Source of the DNA: a virus
Lineage: Duplodnaviria; Caudoviricetes
IMG/VR virus record: IMGVR_UViG_3300031669_005479
Location: 1-64,000 of that record
Strand: one strand, 5' to 3'
Length of the DNA stretch: 64,000 nt
This document shows, piece by piece, positions 1 through 30,207 of the stretch. Numbering within the stretch: the stretch's first letter is position 1; every line of letters begins with the position of its first letter. The notes under the pieces are model-generated. The model ran no database searches and was not told the DNA's origin. It saw only the letters and a program-made list of their open reading frames with translations. The translations under genes were made by a program, and so were the position numbers.

Positions 1-35
1 TTATTTTAAGTTTGTATAATAATTTTTTAACTAAA

Positions 36-132
36 CCATAACAAGGTGTATAAAACATAACCTATTATAGTTCAGTGGTTAATATCAAAGTTCGTGGTTA
101 GATTACGTTTCATACACCCAACCGTTATCGGC
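36..132. repeat. attC-like site 1
   Basis: ccatAAC-aa-GGTGTATaaaacat...acgtttcATACACC-caacc-GTTatcggc. Confidence 0.75.
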
Positions 133-136
133 AACC

Positions 137-445
137 TTAAAGAGCAGCGTCCAACCATTGCCAATCTTCATTAGTTCCATACTCCCAATCTCTTGAAATT
201 ACTTTCGGTTTATAGTTTAAGTCCAAAAGACACATCAAAAGATTAAGCACAAACCCTTCTGCATACTTTACACTTACACCAAAAGAGCCACTTACTCGTA
301 TGTAGTGCTTTTTAAAATCAATATCACAAGGCGGCATTCCTGCAAGTCCTTGTTGGTTAAATTTAGACAGATTAACCATTGCTGTATCAAAGTCATTTTG
401 ACTTATTTCTTTTTCTTTGCTAATTAGATAAAATGAATACCCCAT
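137..445 (-). CDS. Hypothetical cassette protein (102 aa)
   Basis: ORF fills the unit between sites 1 and 2. Confidence 0.7.
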   Translation of the reverse strand: MGYSFYLISKEKEISQNDFDTAMVNLSKFNQQGLAGMPPCDIDFKKHYIRVSGSFGVSVKYAEGFVLNLLMCLLDLNYKPKVISRDWEYGTNEDWQWLDAAL

Positions 446-486
446 TGTTTTGATATTTAAAGTTTAAATTCGTTTTAATAAAGCCA

Positions 487-620
487 GCCGTTAACACGCT
501 ATATGCTTCATTGGCGTGTTCGTTTGTATTCGTAGTTTCTGTCATTTTATAAAGTGTTTAGTAATTTTATAAATTCGTTCTATTAATCGCCAACGAAAGC
601 ATATAGCCATCGTTAGCACC
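487..620. repeat. attC-like site 2
   Basis: gccgttAAC-ac-GCTATATGCTTcattggcg...cgccaacgaAAGCATATAGC-catc-GTTagcacc. Confidence 0.8.
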
Positions 621-837
621 TATAATCACGCTCCATGTAGCTGTTACATGTAAATGATTGAATGTTCACTATATAGTTTCTACCTAAATCGCAAATATGC
701 TGTTCATGTCGATATTTAGCATATTGGTTTTGTCTCAAATTATTACAAGTATTACAATTACGGGCGCTAACAACAGGTTTAACCAATAAAGGCTTCCTGC
801 GTATGCGGTCGGTAATGCGTTTAATAAAGTTCTTCAT
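613..837 (-). CDS. Hypothetical cassette protein, Cys-containing; starts in the loop of site 3
   Basis: Stop TAA lies in the site 2 core; N-terminus is read through the site 3 arm (KPVVSAR). Confidence 0.6.
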   Translation of the reverse strand: MKNFIKRITDRIRRKPLLVKPVVSARNCNTCNNLRQNQYAKYRHEQHICDLGRNYIVNIQSFTCNSYMERDYRC

Positions 838-895
838 ATCTTGATAATTTAGTTATTTTAATCCTTTACTGGTCAAACCTGCGACCGTTATAAAC
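763..895. repeat. attC-like site 3
   Basis: ggcgctAAC-aa-caggtttaaccaataaagg...cctttactggtcaaacctg-cgacc-GTTataaac; arms 17/19 complementary. Confidence 0.8.
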
Positions 896-1148
896 AATTA
901 AATACTACTTGGTCTTTCTCGTAGTTATTAAATTGTAATTTAGGCACTTCACCACAGAATACTATATCAACTTCACCGTTAATAGTATCTATTAGCAAAT
1001 GGTTTTCCTTTTGCTTAAAACCTAAATAAGTTCCTTTATCTTTAAAGTTTACAATCATGGTATTTCGTTTGGTTTTCCATTTTTCGTAAAAACCACCAAT
1101 AAATAAATGTTCTTCTCCTTTTTTGATTTTACATCTCATTTTATCCAT
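888..1148 (-). CDS. Hypothetical cassette protein (86 aa)
   Basis: Stop TAA lies in the site 3 core. Confidence 0.7.
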   Translation of the reverse strand: MDKMRCKIKKGEEHLFIGGFYEKWKTKRNTMIVNFKDKGTYLGFKQKENHLLIDTINGEVDIVFCGEVPKLQFNNYEKDQVVFNCL

Positions 1149-1156
1149 ATTTAAAA

Positions 1157-1220
1157 GTTTATAACAATGTGTAAATAATCATTTCGTTCCTCAACGCTTT
1201 TTACACAAAACGTTATAAAT
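1157..1220. repeat. attC-like site 4 (short)
   Basis: gtttatAAC-aa-TGTGTAAA...TTTACACA-aaac-GTTataaat. Confidence 0.75.
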
Positions 1221-1226
1221 AATAAA

Positions 1227-1427
1227 TTAAATTTTATTGTCTTTAAATATTAACTTTCCTGTTTCATTGTCCATCCAAACTATTCCTTGTACTTTGTTTC
1301 TAAATTCTTCCAAAGTTAATTCTTTTGGTTCTGATGTTCCTTCTACCTTTATTGTAGAGTAATAGTTTGGATTAATTGGGTTATCAACATATTTATTTTT
1401 CAACTCTTTACTTGCTTTCTTTTTCAT
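1227..1427 (-). CDS. Hypothetical cassette protein (66 aa)
   Basis: ORF fills the unit between sites 4 and 5. Confidence 0.6.
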   Translation of the reverse strand: MKKKASKELKNKYVDNPINPNYYSTIKVEGTSEPKELTLEEFRNKVQGIVWMDNETGKLIFKDNKI

Positions 1428-1449
1428 AGGTATAAAATTTAATTTACAT

Positions 1450-1574
1450 ATTTATAACAACAAATATAAAACATTGCTGTCGTGGTTTCTATTTACTTAT
1501 ACGTAATTATTTTAATTTTGTTACATTTATTTACATTCGTGTTGCAACGTTTTATATTTGCGACCGTTAGCAAC
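1450..1574. repeat. attC-like site 5
   Basis: atttatAAC-aa-caaatataaaacattgc...gcaacgttttatatttg-cgacc-GTTagcaac. Confidence 0.8.
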
Positions 1575-1579
1575 AACCG

Positions 1580-1846
1580 CTAAAACTCCGCTGGTCTATC
1601 AAAAGACATCATCGGTGGATTGTCGCTTATCATTTCAATGTAATCTTCGTAAAGGATTGCATCTTCTCTCCTTCCACATACGCTTTCTCCGTGTTTATTT
1701 ACATACTCATTGGGGTCATTACATTTGCCATCTTTATAGTGCTGACATTTCACTATTTCACAACCACTCAAAGCGGCAGTTGCTAACACACGGTCATCAG
1801 CAATATTTGCCGTGCCGTTTGGATAATTTTCTGCTAATTTTGTCAT
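1580..1846 (-). CDS. Hypothetical cassette protein, Cys-containing; starts in the loop of site 6
   Basis: ANIADDRVLAT is encoded by the site 6 arm and core. Confidence 0.6.
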   Translation of the reverse strand: MTKLAENYPNGTANIADDRVLATAALSGCEIVKCQHYKDGKCNDPNEYVNKHGESVCGRREDAILYEDYIEMISDNPPMMSFDRPAEF

Positions 1847-1907
1847 TTGTTCTTTGTTTTAAGTTTTGTGAAGCAAATACTGCTGATACCGTCAAACGTT
1901 ATGCGTT
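1779..1907. repeat. attC-like site 6
   Basis: gttgctAAC-ac-acggt(c)atcagcaatatttgc...gcaaatactgctgataccgt-caaac-GTTatgcgtt; one unpaired base in the left arm. Confidence 0.8.
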
Positions 1908-2240
1908 ATTGTAACGTGCAATAAACAGCTTATAGGTTTCATTAAAAATTCCTTGTGTTTCATCCATTTCAATTGCTAATCTATCAGATAAGTCTGTGTC
2001 TATTTCGCAAACCTTAAAGAAGTCTAAAGCACAACATTCACGCTCGACACTTCTATCAAATCCTGATATAACTTCTTCTTCATCGTCTGTGTCTAAATAT
2101 TCAGAACAATTTGCTTCGTAAGTGTAAACAGCACCGTAATCACTATCTCCAACTTCTTCGTGTCGGTAAAATGAACAATTAGAACAACAACGCATAACAG
2201 CATTTTGTGGCAATTGCGGGTTTTTGGTTTGTTTTTCCAT
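1899..2240 (-). CDS. Hypothetical acidic Cys-rich cassette protein; probable start MEKQ in the loop of site 7
   Basis: Track ORF 1899..2300; ATG at 2240; PQLPQNAVMRC is encoded by the site 7 arm; stop lies in the site 6 core. Confidence 0.65.
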   Translation of the reverse strand: MEKQTKNPQLPQNAVMRCCSNCSFYRHEEVGDSDYGAVYTYEANCSEYLDTDDEEEVISGFDRSVERECCALDFFKVCEIDTDLSDRLAIEMDETQGIFNETYKLFIARYNNA

Positions 2241-2336
2241 TTTAGTTTTTAAATTAAAGTTTAGTCTATTTTTGTATGGTCTGTAATTATTTATCCGCAA
2301 CTGACCACAAGATGCGAAACGTTAGCGAGAATATTT
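2189..2336. repeat. attC-like site 7
   Basis: aacgcatAAC-a-gcattttgtggcaattgcgg...ccgcaactg(a)ccacaagatgc-gaaac-GTTagcgag. Confidence 0.8.
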
Positions 2337-2549
2337 CGCCAACACTTTCCAATCAACTTCTTTTCCTGTTGTTATCTTTATTAATTCAGCAACATCACCA
2401 AGCAACATATATGGCATGTTCAAATGTTTATCGCAATAAGTTTCTTGAACATGTTTTATTGCTTTATCAAAAATATTCTCGTTAACATCAGATATAATTA
2501 ATTTTTTATTCGTGTTGTCAAGTTCAGTAATATTAATTTCTATTTTCAT
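2322..2549 (-). CDS. Hypothetical cassette protein; starts in the loop of site 8
   Basis: LIISDVNEN is encoded by the arm and core; stop lies in the site 7 core. Confidence 0.65.
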   Translation of the reverse strand: MKIEINITELDNTNKKLIISDVNENIFDKAIKHVQETYCDKHLNMPYMLLGDVAELIKITTGKEVDWKVLAKYSR

Positions 2550-2604
2550 TTTATTTAAATTTTAGTGTTATTAATTAAGTAAAAAACTAATCATATCTGC
2601 GACC
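2471..2604. repeat. attC-like site 8, degenerate (right GTT core missing)
   Basis: ctcgttAAC-at-cagatataattaatttttt (2489-2507) pairs 17/19 with 2581-2599, then cgacc followed by CCAG instead of GTT. Confidence 0.65.
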
Positions 2605-2739: not shown

Positions 2740-3492
2740 TTATTTGTGAATTTTTTTATATTCAATTCCTTTAGTATAGTATGAAAACCATCTTTGATAC
2801 ATATATGGCAAAATTTTATGATTGGAAAAACCATATAAACCACACGAAAAAAAATCGTGACATTCAATCACAAAAGTAGTTTTGTTAATGCCAACATCAA
2901 GCGTATATGCAACAGGTGCATTTTTATAGTTTTTAATCATACCGTTGATTTTATTAATATCTGGAAATCTAGTAAAATCACCAGAATAATGTTGTAATCC
3001 AACCATTTCATTTTGAAATACAAAAACACGCCATTCACTATCAATAGCAATTAACTCTGAAATCTGATAATTACCCGCAGGTATTTTATAAATATGATTA
3101 TTATCCAATACTATTGCATCTGAAAATCCTTTTATTTTATCATTATTTTTTATGTAAAAACTTCCTTTTATCTTTTCTAAATCAAATTGAGTTCCATTAA
3201 ATATTGACCTACCAGCATATCCATACAATTCTTCTGGAACATTTATTGGCTTAGGTATTTTACCGTAAAATTGAAATAAAAATGCTGATACAAATTGAAC
3301 GCTACCAATCGGTATATAATTTTTATGTATTGGTTTAAATATAAATCTTTCTTGATTTTCATGTGTATTAAAAAACACATATTTCATAATTATATTTCCC
3401 GCATACCAATTATTGTATCTAATTGATTCCAGTAGTGTAAATGTAAAATCATGTCTAACGCTGCCGTCAATTTTTTGTATCAGGAACTTCAT
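2740..3492 (-). CDS. ATP-grasp protein (DUF4343/R2K-like)
   Basis: EWRVFV, YTLDVG, VIECHDFFSCGLYG motifs. Confidence 0.7.
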   Translation of the reverse strand: MKFLIQKIDGSVRHDFTFTLLESIRYNNWYAGNIIMKYVFFNTHENQERFIFKPIHKNYIPIGSVQFVSAFLFQFYGKIPKPINVPEELYGYAGRSIFNGTQFDLEKIKGSFYIKNNDKIKGFSDAIVLDNNHIYKIPAGNYQISELIAIDSEWRVFVFQNEMVGLQHYSGDFTRFPDINKINGMIKNYKNAPVAYTLDVGINKTTFVIECHDFFSCGLYGFSNHKILPYMYQRWFSYYTKGIEYKKIHK

Positions 3493-3532
3493 TGCAAAAA
3501 TATTAATTTACAAATATACAAAACAATTCTAA

Positions 3533-4666
3533 TTATTCACAACCTTTATCAGAATAACTTGAAAATTGTTTACGAATTCCAACCAATTTATTAATTGCCG
3601 TTTTCTTACTTGAAATTAATTTTCCATTATTTGTTACAGATACAAAATCTGGAACTTGATCTAAACATGTAACCACAAGATTTTTATTTGAAAATTGATT
3701 ATGATATAAATCACAATCAAGTGCATATCGCAACATGTTAATATCCAACACAGATTTCTTAAATATTCCTTGTGCACCACCATTAACATTTGCTTCCAAT
3801 GGGTTTTCTTTAATGTAGGAAATATCCATATTTTCATTAATCATTGGACCATTTCCATGACGAGTTTGATATGCACGAGTAATATAGTATGTTTCATTAG
3901 GAACAATATTTAGTTTATTCAACATTTCAATTGCATTTTTTGAAGTTGTGTTGCTCCTAGTTACATGTGGAAAAAAACCATAATCCATATCCAACATAAT
4001 TCCTTGCCCACCTTCAAAAATAAAACTATCGTATGATAATGAACCAAAATCAGTAGCAATCTTAAACCTATTTACCAAATCATCACTTGCAACAATAAAT
4101 TCTTCAATTGCTTTATTCATATGCTCAACAAAATGTTTTGTTGAATGACCGATTTTTGTATTCATGTATTCACGAATCAAATTCAACTTTATATCTCTTA
4201 TGTTAGGATATAGCAAATCACGAACATATAACTTATAATGATCTGCATTACGTTGAATAGTTGCCCCAAAACCAACACCAACGCTACCATGTAACATATT
4301 TGTGCTATCCTGCATGTTACGATATATATCAAAAGGAGTTGTCACCATTGCATTTGGACTATAAATTACTTTTGGTGTGATACCTTGTGCTCTGAGTGCA
4401 TTTCCTTCCTTTAATACTGCAGTTGGATTTACTGTACAATATTCAGACCAATAAGTTGGAACACCTCTTAATGTGCCAGAACCAAAATTTGAAAATGTGT
4501 GTCTGATACTATTGTGAACAACAGTATGTCCAACTTGATGACCACCATTAAATCTAACAACCAATGGATTTTCATGCTTACCACAAAGATAATTAACAAA
4601 AGAACCTTTGCCTTCATCGCCATATCCCGCACCAATAACTAGACTAACATTCATATTATTTATCAT
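3533..4666 (-). CDS. purA: Adenylosuccinate synthetase-like protein (divergent PurA family)
   Basis: GAGYGDEGKG P-loop, RFNGGHQVGHT, FEGGQG, VTRSNT, TRHGNGP. Confidence 0.85.
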   Translation of the reverse strand: MINNMNVSLVIGAGYGDEGKGSFVNYLCGKHENPLVVRFNGGHQVGHTVVHNSIRHTFSNFGSGTLRGVPTYWSEYCTVNPTAVLKEGNALRAQGITPKVIYSPNAMVTTPFDIYRNMQDSTNMLHGSVGVGFGATIQRNADHYKLYVRDLLYPNIRDIKLNLIREYMNTKIGHSTKHFVEHMNKAIEEFIVASDDLVNRFKIATDFGSLSYDSFIFEGGQGIMLDMDYGFFPHVTRSNTTSKNAIEMLNKLNIVPNETYYITRAYQTRHGNGPMINENMDISYIKENPLEANVNGGAQGIFKKSVLDINMLRYALDCDLYHNQFSNKNLVVTCLDQVPDFVSVTNNGKLISSKKTAINKLVGIRKQFSSYSDKGCE

Positions 4667-6788: not shown

Positions 6789-7385
6789 CTAAATATTTAG
6801 AAATTTTTCCACCTCATTACAAATTTTTTGTGTTAGTCCAAAATAACTATCAACATGAAAAAAATGTTCACGCTGATTTAATAAAAAATCTATACCATCA
6901 TCAATTATTGCATAATGATAAAAATTATGACTACTAGCATCAAAATATTCCTCAACATTATTTGTAAGCCATTTTTTTATTTCACATCCCCTATTACGAC
7001 ATTCGCAATTACCTGTTTTATCAATAATGGTAAATGTTGCACCAAGTTTCTTAAATATTACTTGTAAATCCTGAACATCCCATTGATTTCTCATTGAAGC
7101 ACTTAAAACTACAACGGAATTTGTTTTAACACACAAATCATTCAATAATTTAATTTTACTTAAATCGATTTGTGATTTATAATAATCAATAGTACTAATT
7201 TCTTGTGATTTAAGTAATTTACGTAAATATTTTTTCACTACCTTATATAATGGTATGCCATCATTCTTATGTAAATGTTTATATTGCTCTTCATAAAAAA
7301 GATCATGATTTAAAACTCCATCTACGTCACAAAAAATCAAAGACTTAAATTCATTTTTATTTTCCATATTTCTTTTAATTGTCAA
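6789..7385 (-). CDS. HAD-superfamily phosphatase (RNA-repair-like HAD)
   Basis: FCDVDGVLN, VVLSAS, YAIIDD; probable start 7367. Confidence 0.75.
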   Translation of the reverse strand: MTIKRNMENKNEFKSLIFCDVDGVLNHDLFYEEQYKHLHKNDGIPLYKVVKKYLRKLLKSQEISTIDYYKSQIDLSKIKLLNDLCVKTNSVVVLSASMRNQWDVQDLQVIFKKLGATFTIIDKTGNCECRNRGCEIKKWLTNNVEEYFDASSHNFYHYAIIDDGIDFLLNQREHFFHVDSYFGLTQKICNEVEKFLNI

Positions 7386-7389
7386 CCTA

Positions 7390-7416
7390 TATACGAAATA
7401 ATTCCTAAAATGTTAC
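7390..7416 (-). promoter_or_regulatory. ECF-type promoter GTAAC-N16-CGTATA (HAD operon)
   Basis: Same consensus. Confidence 0.6.
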
Positions 7417-7487
7417 ATGTGATCGTAAACAAAAAAACATTTTCGGGTGCAAATATATAAAAAATAATTAACGTGTGGCACAATCTT

Positions 7488-7513
7488 GTAACATTTAAAT
7501 ACTTTATTCGTAT
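7488..7513 (+). promoter_or_regulatory. ECF-type promoter GTAAC-N16-CGTAT (3D protein)
   Basis: Same consensus. Confidence 0.6.
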
Positions 7514-7530
7514 TACATATAAAAAGAACT

Positions 7531-8103
7531 ATGAAAAATTTAATTTATCGAAGCATTGCATTACTATCGATATTTTTAATATCAACATCAATGATTAACA
7601 ACTACACCTATAATAAAAAAAGTGTGGCCTTTGAGTTACTATATTGTAATGTGTGGGGTACGATTTATCATGCAACTAAACGGCAATGTGATAATAGTCC
7701 AACAATTACTGGAGACGGGTCGCATATTAATGTAAAAAACGCAAGTAAATATCGTTGGATCGCTATTAGTCAGGACATGCTTAAGAGTGTTAACCGTTTG
7801 AAACTATTAAAGAATCCACTAACCAGTAAAATATATAAAGGTAAAATTGTATATGGGGATACTGTTTGGATTAAAAGTGGCAATCCTAAAATTAATGGTT
7901 GGTGGGTTGTTCACGATGCAAAGAGTGCAAAGTGTGATAATAGTGGTAATTTACTATATTCTAAATCAATTGATTTTTTGCAAACAGAAGGTGATATCAA
8001 TCTATATAATGGTAATCCACTATGGTCTGGAAAATTCTGTGATATTAAAATATATCGATTGAAAAATGTTTACTATAAAAACATTAAAAGATTTGTAATC
8101 TAA
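7531..8103 (+). CDS. 3D-domain (RlpA/MltA-like) peptidoglycan-active protein with N-terminal signal
   Basis: Hydrophobic N-terminus; QCDNSPTITGDG, WIAISQD, YGDTVWI, VVHD, IDFL. Confidence 0.65.
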   Translation: MKNLIYRSIALLSIFLISTSMINNYTYNKKSVAFELLYCNVWGTIYHATKRQCDNSPTITGDGSHINVKNASKYRWIAISQDMLKSVNRLKLLKNPLTSKIYKGKIVYGDTVWIKSGNPKINGWWVVHDAKSAKCDNSGNLLYSKSIDFLQTEGDINLYNGNPLWSGKFCDIKIYRLKNVYYKNIKRFVI

Positions 8104-29700: not shown

Positions 29701-30044
29701 CCTGTTTCATCATAGTATTTAACATCTGCATCACCAAGGGTCTTAACAATTGCTTTTATACTATCAACACGCTTTAAATTTTTCTTTCTAAAATCATGAT
29801 TACCTCTAGTAATACGTACTGGTGCAATTTTACTTAATTCATGTAATAAATTATTTGCGGTGATGAGTTGTTCACTTTGTAAATCAAGATAGTCATGAAC
29901 TAAGTCCCCGACAATCACAATTCTATCTGGTTTTTTTTCTTTTAACGATTTAACTAAATTTTCAAATACCTTTTGATATTCATCATTTCTTGTGGGCACT
30001 TTACGCAAATGAATGTCTGCAAGATGAGCAATTGTATTAACCAT
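26718..30044 (-). CDS. sbcC: SbcD(Mre11)-SbcC(Rad50) fusion, gp47-gp46-like
   Basis: ADIH, GDLVHD, GNHD; GVNTAGKTT Walker A; CPTCG hook; SASGKE signature; LLDE Walker B. Confidence 0.92.
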   Translation of the reverse strand: MVNTIAHLADIHLRKVPTRNDEYQKVFENLVKSLKEKKPDRIVIVGDLVHDYLDLQSEQLITANNLLHELSKIAPVRITRGNHDFRKKNLKRVDSIKAIVKTLGDADVKYYDETGFFTDENIVWAVWHHGVKNSNPWKTKDGKKISAYKSQSGLTSIDLFHDPVGGCKSTTGFEMKSSSYYKISDFRGDISMFGDIHLMQYLDKNKTKAYCGSLIAQDVSEGDDNFHGYLLWNVSNKCAELIPIHNDYSFKNIKISQYLDFDDLDFEIDNPTTYMKVRFVWCTLPQTRTKENERKIIEYLKSKYNNVIISHKNEFLEIEKIDVNETITLQNIIDVNVQHEIFKEFLNKIGADEQVINDVIALDKEILSEIDIIDSESIEWNIIKFGGKNFMSYGQLDIDWRDMDGLFQINGVNTAGKTTIMKLISYLMFNKTIETESRMKYGDQRFVNNRNGANSCEAYLVVEANGEYFGIKKITEISRNKSGEINGAPTTLNYYLLATPDDEMNDESAIEKFDEDRRNLTQKKIETIIGTYDNFMRIVMTTSDTLNRILSNDMADFIDSLLYDSGLDIFDKKHEGLKVYQKRINEKPRVSCNVELTTAENVKLSQEIAVIEENVNNIETVILPKIQTSIQTGRKYIEDLTKKLYKIDPEIYNLDVDAARKDISANKKNIVEIRARELVLKQSILPLKQTYDAVRLKELEEIKNTHKINEYNLKLDIKNLEQEIQTNSHQIEIINGDIFRLKKDGAKYKAEIIELNESKICPTCGQQLLPEHRHNIDDIINIKKGEMLKIASQIHDKEDIDIKKYQDVISLKNDNINTIKEGIISKSLEMENVLKEIGEITNDKNDVDKRKELQLELDFIPTKIQNETLKINILNQKIGGHESSLLQIEENHRIEKRIAASKIRINELEIEENDVKENLLIHKTSIGEKLQKIKTNEMLIIEFKAQEYRDLVMNLYKKCVHRDGIPRQILSNYIIPKINLTLEKILSVASFKVWLDLDDLRPKLIYNNRPTSVIDCISASGKERTFSSVVLKFALNQINIKAKPTIFLLDEVMGKLDENSVEEFVEILQLIKNNMKKVLIIEHHADINPDYLINVEVDENGMSSLSIE

Positions 30045-30207
30045 GTTTTAAATTTTTTTACAAATATATTCAAAAGTATATCTATATGCAAGGGTTTTGC
30101 AAATTTGTCAATATCATAGTCATTTAACATGCAAATTTGTCATACAACCCTCAATGGCATTCGGTTTGTAATTTACAGTTTAAAATAACATTAACTTAAA
30201 AAATTAA

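Follow-up and report, generated by a model that had tools for sequence, protein, structure and literature searches.

The stretch of DNA examined here (the window) comprises the first 64 kb of a 202,814-bp soil virus contig from IMG/VR (IMGVR_UViG_3300031669_005479), which was judged 66% complete. At its left end, positions 1-2604, we observed a run of small open reading frames (ORFs), every one of them on the minus strand, with imperfect hairpins of 52-128 nt between them, which very probably constitutes an array of integron-type gene cassettes carried by a large phage whose host belongs to the Bacteroidota. The array is open at the contig start (position 1), which is its attI side, and extends past the end of the contig there; when all of the contig was scanned, this revealed a second array of the same type (array B, genome 189.4-192.3 kb), lying in the opposite orientation.

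Reading along the plus strand, the window array begins with the 3' part of a truncated cassette (1..124), holding the attC-like site W0 (TAAC 39-42, GTT 124-126; hairpin arms 45-64/99-118; site finder span 40-126), whose hairpin type is also present in the megaphage LR756500. Cassette 1 (125..612, +) combines an antisense ORF at 137-445 (102 aa) with the attC-like site W1 (TAAC 492-495 to GTT 612-614), matched at 479-628 (E 1e-7) by R1, a covariance model made from 30 Bacteroidota chromosomal sites; a homologue of this cassette in contig L147 is 79% identical in amino acids, and the DNA homology begins at window position 124. The antisense ORF of cassette 2 (613..887, +) lies at 613-837 (74 aa), its stop codon being the core TTA and its start codon lying within the hairpin loop of site W2 (768-889; R1 match 755-903). 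The W2 hairpin recurs with 80-94% identity, and with different flanks, in six other phage contigs, and its 22-residue leader is fused to unrelated proteins. Cassette 3 (888..1212, +) contains an antisense ORF at 888-1148 (86 aa) and the short site W3 (1162-1214; 52 nt from AAC to GTT); the complementarity of its ends extends to 18 nt at 89%, and its fold reaches -13.4 kcal/mol when circularised vs -9.3 kcal/mol in the array form. In cassette 4 (1213..1566, +), an antisense ORF at 1227-1427 (66 aa) is accompanied by site W4 (1455-1568; R1 match 1442-1582), the hairpin of which is 87-94% identical to copies in LR756500, in contig L148 and in array B.

Cassette 5 (1567..1898, +) has its antisense ORF at 1580-1846 (88 aa), with the start codon in the loop of site W5 (1784-1900; R1 match 1771-1914); this hairpin is found with 85-92% identity in six phage contigs, and the homology stops at the cores. 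A homologue of cassette 5 (90% of amino acids) at L140 2980-3290 (IMGVR_UViG_3300010347_001159) is flanked by decayed forms of the site, one side consisting of TAAC, 12 nt and GTT without a hairpin, the other keeping only the gene-borne hairpin arm. Cassette 6 (1899..2321, +) carries an antisense ORF at 1899-2240 (113 aa), whose stop codon again is the core TTA, and site W6 (2195-2323; R1 match 2182-2337, E 4.5e-15); a homologue of its gene (79% of amino acids) is the first cassette in the IMG/VR contig L003 (an array of at least 12 sites), beside an attI-like boundary. The last one, cassette 7 (2322..2604, +), comprises an antisense ORF at 2322-2549 (75 aa) and the terminal site W7 (TAAC 2483-2486, arms 2489-2508/2580-2599); a 45-aa minus-strand ORF (2571-2708) overlaps the right arm and loop of W7, where GTT is replaced. 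The seven window cassette proteins and three proteins of array B gave no informative Pfam or PHROGs family, and DUF6922, a single weak match of the first cassette protein below the cut-off (E 0.0078), was disregarded. One site of array B (genome 190,964-191,235; L001 6964-7235) is 272 nt long, its loop carrying about 60 codons of the cassette gene, so that the hairpin arms are kept apart by coding sequence.

All these sites share one anatomy. On the plus strand an outer box is followed by TAAC, A, a spacer of 1-2 nt, the left arm, the loop, the right arm, a spacer of 4-6 nt ending in C, GTTA and a second outer box, the two spacers thus being asymmetric (2 vs 4-6 nt). Common to the eight window sites and the seven array-B sites are TAACA, a T seven bases on, CGTTA and an A at +11, and the same invariant bases (TAACA, T at +7, CGTTA, A at +11) are carried by the 30 chromosomal sites; TAAC and GTTA themselves are invariant in 25/25 phage sites and 30/30 bacterial sites. 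Folded in the circularised form, the site shows from the outside inwards an outer stem of 4-6 bp, an A.C mismatch, a 10-bp stem which includes the core, an asymmetric internal loop and an inner stem with two more 1x1 mismatches. Apart from the asymmetric spacer, what stays unpaired are 1x1 A.C mismatches; bulged extrahelical bases were not observed. What is A.C on the plus strand is G.T on the minus strand, and the bottom (minus) strand folds better in 23/23 phage sites and in 26/30 bacterial sites; the bottom strand is presumably the substrate.

The first-pass annotation had claimed that each unit between two hairpins possesses its own private pair of complementary ends, and all seven quoted pairs (left end vs reverse complement of the right end) were recovered: 124/495 (8/9), 612/771 (8/9), 887/1165 (9/9), 1212/1458 (10/10), 1566/1787 (9/9), 1898/2198 (10/10) and 2321/2486 (15/16). 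Scoring the 12 positions past the shared GTTA and pooling the seven window units with the seven of array B, we found that the own ends of a unit match at 8.9/12 positions and non-cognate ends at 3.6/12 (14 units, two arrays), and that, as had likewise been stated, the two flanks of one hairpin pair worse than the unit's own ends (3.5/12 vs 8.9/12). In the permutation test which the annotation had proposed, none of 200,000 random pairings reached the observed sum (P < 5e-6), and chance is therefore rejected as an explanation of the matched ends; 21 units of three other phages follow the same rule (9.5 vs 4.3; 0/100,000 permutations). The complementarity turned out to be longer than previously noted, extending over about 10 bp, a fixed mismatch at position 11 and about five further pairs, with position 11 being A on the GTTA side in every site examined and usually C on the TAAC side. 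In silico circularisation, also proposed at the time, yields one long hairpin for each cassette, and among the cases of up to 200 nt the circularised hairpin is more stable than the array form in 21/23, one case being a tie and one going the other way. By the classical integron rule, R'' matches the beginning of the cassette to which it belongs. The first reading has to be corrected in that the genes are antisense to the site and in many cases have their start within the hairpin, which is why the right 'ends' at 771, 1787, 2198 and 2486 are located inside ORFs.

The point of crossover can be read from two cultured Flavobacterium phages of the genus Muminvirus. Compared with mumin6-1, the genome of filifjonk9-1 contains three extra cassettes exactly at G/TTA after one hairpin (the slash, here and below, marking the crossover point), the insert sitting between the unchanged hairpin and TTAGTGGC, which directly follows that hairpin in mumin6-1. 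One more cassette was gained at the left edge of the filifjonk9-1 array, where the two genomes agree in sequence up to tattgta/GTTATAAG. From these insertions it follows that the mobile unit consists of TTA, gene, TAAC, hairpin and G. It is thus not the 'unit' as originally delimited, but that 'unit' plus its TAAC-side hairpin, ending at the G of the next GTT. A cassette composed of the GTTA-side hairpin and the unit was rejected, since the filifjonk insert spares the upstream hairpin and the gene starts in the TAAC-side hairpin.

Homologues of units 1 and 6 are present in L147 and L003, respectively, and in both of them the homology begins at the G of GTT. In soil metagenome data, for which the evidence from sequencing runs consists of assembled contigs only, divergence sets in at 768, 890 and 1451, that is, at cores, and the depth over the hairpins is 3-4 times that over the units; two short-sided joints from one run (903>1149 and 903>1451) may reflect misaligned complementary ends and were not used. 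DNA searches further showed that single window hairpins recur in a 462-kb uncultured phage and in the cultured Muminvirus phages, all of which bear full arrays of this site type. The earlier claim of an insertion by crossover within the AAC/GTT core is supported by three independent lines, namely the phage insertions at G/TTA, the breakpoints of homologues and the presence of arrays of the same sites, with the same invariant bases, beside a tyrosine recombinase in Bacteroidota chromosomes; of the further claim, that the units were inserted one by one as circles, the 'one by one' may not hold, and a block of several cassettes can move together. Two Muminvirus cassettes (L005 1648-2060 and L004 7021-7379) have the hairpin, both outer boxes and the stretch preceding the gene in common, but their ORFs (82 and 61 aa) are unrelated; the cargo has been exchanged within a conserved cassette frame.

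We conclude that the matched ends were left behind by crossover within the core of a folded site. Each cassette (on the plus strand) consists of the TTA after the previous site's G, one small gene on the opposite strand and its own folded site. In the mechanism we propose, a tyrosine recombinase would cut at G/TT in the folded strand and release the cassette as a circle, where pairing of the two outer boxes forms a stem of about 16 bp; the circle could then re-enter either at a different site of this kind or at a simple, attI-like one (GT.YATAT..TA/GTTA). Insertion would leave the halves of the outer stem at opposite ends of the cassette, and it is this splitting which would give rise to the private pair of ends.

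As an alternative which involves no site-specific enzyme, it should be considered whether these structures are regulatory modules like the promoter-stem-loop cassettes (PeSLs) of T4-type phages, shuffled by homologous recombination between near-identical hairpins of co-infecting phages. Such an explanation would agree with the W2, W4 and W5 hairpins being 80-94% identical across unrelated phage contigs with both flanks different, with several complete phage genomes being devoid of a recombinase and with PeSL exchange generating mini-circles in T4-type phages (PMC2839356). However, homologous exchange in hairpins provides no reason for complementary unit ends, yet the ends co-vary, the breakpoints lie at a 4-base core and not within the hairpins, neither array contains a Bacteroidota-type promoter, and in bacteria as well as in some phages the same sites adjoin a tyrosine recombinase. 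We therefore regard this explanation as very unlikely, although homologous exchange between hairpins may add to the shuffling.

Sites of this type are by no means restricted to the contig under study. An exact 23-base pattern, representing one site sub-type and expected to give about one match by chance, was found in more than 120 Bacteroidota genome contigs, with a few further matches in Ignavibacteria and Chlorobi and with many of these chromosomal matches lying within arrays, and also in more than 120 IMG/VR viral contigs. Model R1 recognises five window sites (E 4.5e-15 to 8e-4, all on the plus strand), 38 other phage sites (E down to 7e-18), the phage matches always being on the strand opposite to the genes, and 289 sites across 100 bacterial loci. 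The sites of the window thus belong to a family found across the phylum. An extended bacterial example is provided by Flavobacterium wongokense contig 9 (L139; G006:C32 6000-25000), where at least 23 near-identical sites lie directly downstream of a gene which encodes an Xer-like recombinase of 347 aa that lacks the IntI insert. Several cassettes of this array are duplicated, with differing neighbours on their GTTA side. Four 'bacterial' loci, namely L046 (Flavobacterium caseinilyticum contig2, 304-312 kb), L114, L103 and L034, carry antisense-dominant, phage-like arrays and could represent prophages or phage contigs that were binned wrongly.

In at least 14 bacterial genomes a gene for an Xer-like tyrosine recombinase is located at most a few kb from the arrays, in a divergent or co-directional layout, and in 9 of the 120 IMG/VR loci examined for gene orientation and recombinases (taken from the viral contigs matching the 23-base pattern) a recombinase of the 260-aa class adjoins the attI-like end of the array. 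The site family is hence linked to an Xer-like recombinase in bacteria and in some phages, and it presumably is this enzyme which does the cutting. The array-linked recombinases align end to end with XerA, for which structures have been solved, and score approximately at the cut-off on the XerA/integron-integrase model; on TIGR02249 they reach 174-203 bits vs a cut-off of 265, with model positions ~184-238 unmatched. The IntI-specific insert in the catalytic domain, by which a complete IntI-based integron is defined, is absent from them; contrary to the first reading, the linked enzyme is no canonical IntI. This insert of about 40 residues is held to be essential for recombining folded attC sites, and in IntI1 it is tied to single-strand activity.

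Before the first GTTA, arrays with a recombinase gene as well as arrays without one (array B of this contig, L003, Muminvirus) share the attI-like motif GT.YATAT..TA. One phage contig with a recombinase of its own is L188 (6886-8320; IMGVR_UViG_3300020045_012733), which encodes a 266-aa protein (6886-7686; PF00589 + PF13495) with the attI-like motif about 50 bp upstream of its start codon, followed by at least seven sites; the cassette genes point towards the recombinase gene, and among the neighbouring genes are those for an antirepressor and for a helicase-methylase fusion.

Hairpins with a fixed 4-base target resemble the ends of IS200/IS605 elements and the linked enzyme is Xer-like without the IntI insert, which brings up other kinds of DNA mobility, namely either an IS200/IS605-like single-strand transposon or double-stranded modules of the Xer type, such as the pdif modules of Acinetobacter plasmids. 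The contig, however, contains no Y1 transposase (PF01797), and the units are arranged head to tail with one hairpin/site each. Moreover, a duplex Xer site needs conserved arms around its spacer, whereas the variation seen here is of a different kind, and the complementarity of outer boxes over 150-650 bp makes sense only if the site folds in a circle. Both variants are, in our opinion, highly improbable.

Several observations nevertheless weigh against an integron-type array. No tyrosine, serine or HUH recombinase was detected in the 202.8-kb contig (no match to PF00589 or TIGR02249), nor was a tyrosine recombinase found in six phage records, which include this contig and three complete genomes of cultured array-bearing phages. 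In comparison to VchIntIA (2a3v), the array-linked recombinase is short of about 42 residues, between residues 181 and 244 of the former. The same hairpin is found with different cargo on its TAAC side, too, for which a canonical crossover on the bottom strand offers no explanation. Neither a circular cassette nor an empty site of this phage was seen in the contig data, which are blind to rare circles. W7 lacks GTT and has CCA in its place; the right arm of W7, however, is also present in contig L153, where it is followed by a proper GTTATGG, and the window copy therefore has lost its R' box and represents the right edge of the array. Finally, P12002L_attC1 of Polaribacter phage P12002L, the only published site of this type, alone among six phage sites remained without verification of its IntI1 recombination junctions in the work of Qi et al. 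(PMC9892861).

With regard to the missing enzyme, it should be noted that the window array has no integrase match in the contig, but that its attI side is off the contig start and the genome is incomplete; array B, with at least two sites and no integrase nearby, is by definition a CALIN (cluster of attC sites lacking integron-integrases). An all-against-all protein comparison of four array-bearing phages revealed no protein common to all of them. We infer that the recombinase acts in trans here, being supplied by the host, by a co-infecting phage or by the missing third of the genome.

Phage and bacterial arrays differ in the orientation of their genes. In the bacterial arrays the longest ORF between two sites is located on the top strand of the site in 215 cases and antisense to it in 24 (90% sense). 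In the phages the antisense orientation prevails, with 22 antisense and no sense genes in L003 and the two cultured Muminvirus phages, 185 antisense and seven sense in the 120 IMG/VR loci, and 14 antisense and none sense in both arrays of this contig (antisense share in phage arrays ~97%; phage vs bacterial orientation, Fisher's exact test, p = 4e-94). The usual arrangement of integrons, in which the gene is located upstream of attC on the same strand, is thus replaced in 7/7 window and 7/7 array-B units by an antisense one. That the antisense coding strand is the real one is shown by Muminvirus and P12002L, both of which carry annotated methyltransferase genes. The stop codon is the core TTA in 16/37 phage cassettes, and the start codon lies inside the hairpin loop in 17/37. 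A W5-type leader of about 22 residues (starting with MTKLAEN) is common to seven contigs and a W2-type leader of about 23 residues (starting with MKNFIKR) to seven other contigs, each in frame with otherwise unrelated proteins, and the site therefore supplies the translation start. The Bacteroidota-type promoter TTG-N17-21-TAnnTTTG occurs 63 times in the whole contig and not once in either array, so that they probably belong to a long leftward transcript; the idea that each cassette has its own promoter was dropped after the promoter scan had come out empty in and near the hairpins.

Start codons located in loops, together with the fact that in the phage it is the gene-sense strand which folds better, with pairs compatible with G.U, could also mean that the structures function at the RNA level, in termination, in processing or in the control of translation, the matched ends then reflecting long-range pairing in the mRNA and no trace of recombination. 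In the bacterial arrays, however, the same better-folding strand is antisense to the genes, and the asymmetry therefore belongs to the DNA site. Presence/absence polymorphisms ending at G/TTA likewise remain unexplained by RNA pairing, and a search of Rfam with the sites returned no match. To this explanation we can give hardly any credence.

Taking the integron-type reading further, Bacteroidota and their phages might possess a parallel, largely unrecognised integron-like system, characterised by an Xer-like recombinase without the IntI insert and by long folded sites with a 16-bp R box. The phages would keep a mirror-image pool of cassettes, in which the site is located upstream of the gene, is read antisense and provides a translation start along with a shared N-terminal leader; with enzyme and sites shared between host and phage, a cassette that ended up in the other partner would not be expressed. 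For this broader proposal we consider the chances to be evenly balanced.

Integrons are the textbook device of gene capture, and the origin of their cassettes still is an open question. Genes reversed with respect to the site, with leaders encoded by it, amount to a second way of building a cassette, an architecture which may bear on cassette origin. Integron logic that presumably operates with an enzyme lacking the supposedly necessary insert makes the evolutionary transition from Xer to IntI accessible to experimental study. Phages, cultured lytic Flavobacterium phages included, carry arrays of swappable genes, some of which encode DNA methyltransferases, and this suggests a route for the fast turnover of counter-defence genes. 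Current integron finders need the IntI insert; these recombinases would not be called IntI, and the arrays could be reported only as integrase-less clusters.

As to the surroundings of the array, the adjoining region of the window (2740-4666) carries two auxiliary metabolic genes, one for a 250-aa ATP-grasp protein of the R2K clade, the other for a 377-aa adenylosuccinate synthetase; a search with the flanking ATP-grasp gene yielded a single short contig, which is free of arrays. Elsewhere in the contig, the large subunit of ribonucleotide reductase is split by an intein with a LAGLIDADG homing endonuclease (L001 10560-14168; genome 194,560-198,168), and a GIY-YIG protein is encoded at L001 17560-18486. 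A tblastn search of 50,697 phage records with a 1460-aa protein of this phage returned no match, which leaves the phage without a known close isolate.

Integrase-less attC clusters in virulent phages have been described by Qi et al. 2023 (PMC9892861), and the Polaribacter phage P12002L treated there resembles the phage studied here in that it combines an integrase-less array with a lytic-type phage of a Flavobacteriia host. Two sites in 'divergent directions' are given for P12002L, of which P12002L_attC1 was predicted by HattCI (PMC9892861); in our analysis this site (30005-30058) is of the same type as those of the window, with the methyltransferase genes antisense to it. The portion of that article available to us contains no account of the site family, the host arrays, the reversed gene orientation or the leader (PMC9892861), and to the case of P12002L the window adds a phage contig of about 200 kb with two arrays. 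IntegronFinder 2.0 reported very few integrons in Bacteroidetes, and a 2024 preprint lists Bacteroidota among the clades earlier found to be integron-free. Our literature search retrieved no description of the site family, of reversed phage cassettes or of the leaders, which is no proof that none exists.

Compared with the attC sites of integrons, in particular the long ones of the V. cholerae-repeat type known from sedentary chromosomal integrons, the phage sites share the imperfect hairpin, the AAC/GTT triplets and the unpaired asymmetric spacer. The cassettes resemble those of integrons in the G/TT crossover, by which R'' pairs with the start of its own cassette, in having one gene each, in the co-oriented arrays of sites and in the better folding of the bottom strand. 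In contrast to integron attC, pairing of the R box extends here to about 16 bp with a fixed A.C mismatch and bulged extrahelical bases were not seen, and, unlike in integron cassettes, the phage gene is antisense and begins inside the site, while the linked recombinase is devoid of the IntI insert.

In inverted integrons of the Treponema denticola type the integrase is encoded on the same strand as the cassettes. Similar to these, the Bacteroidota loci L134, L137, L138 and L139 have a recombinase co-directional with the top strand of the sites, and the recombinase of phage arrays is co-directional with the cassette genes; relative to the sites, however, the phage layout is the classical divergent one, and it is the genes within the cassettes which are flipped. 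With the PeSLs of T4-type phages the arrays have in common conserved stem-loops between small non-essential phage genes in plastic regions, as well as circular intermediates proposed to carry genes between phages (PMC2839356, PMC4122927). PeSLs, however, contain a promoter together with a terminator and are exchanged by homologous recombination (PMC2839356, PMC4122927), whereas the arrays described here display a fixed 4-base crossover core, cassette-specific complementary ends and no promoter motif. IS200/IS605 elements differ from them in their Y1 HUH transposase and in the subterminal hairpins at both ends of the element, where the arrays have one hairpin per unit, head to tail.

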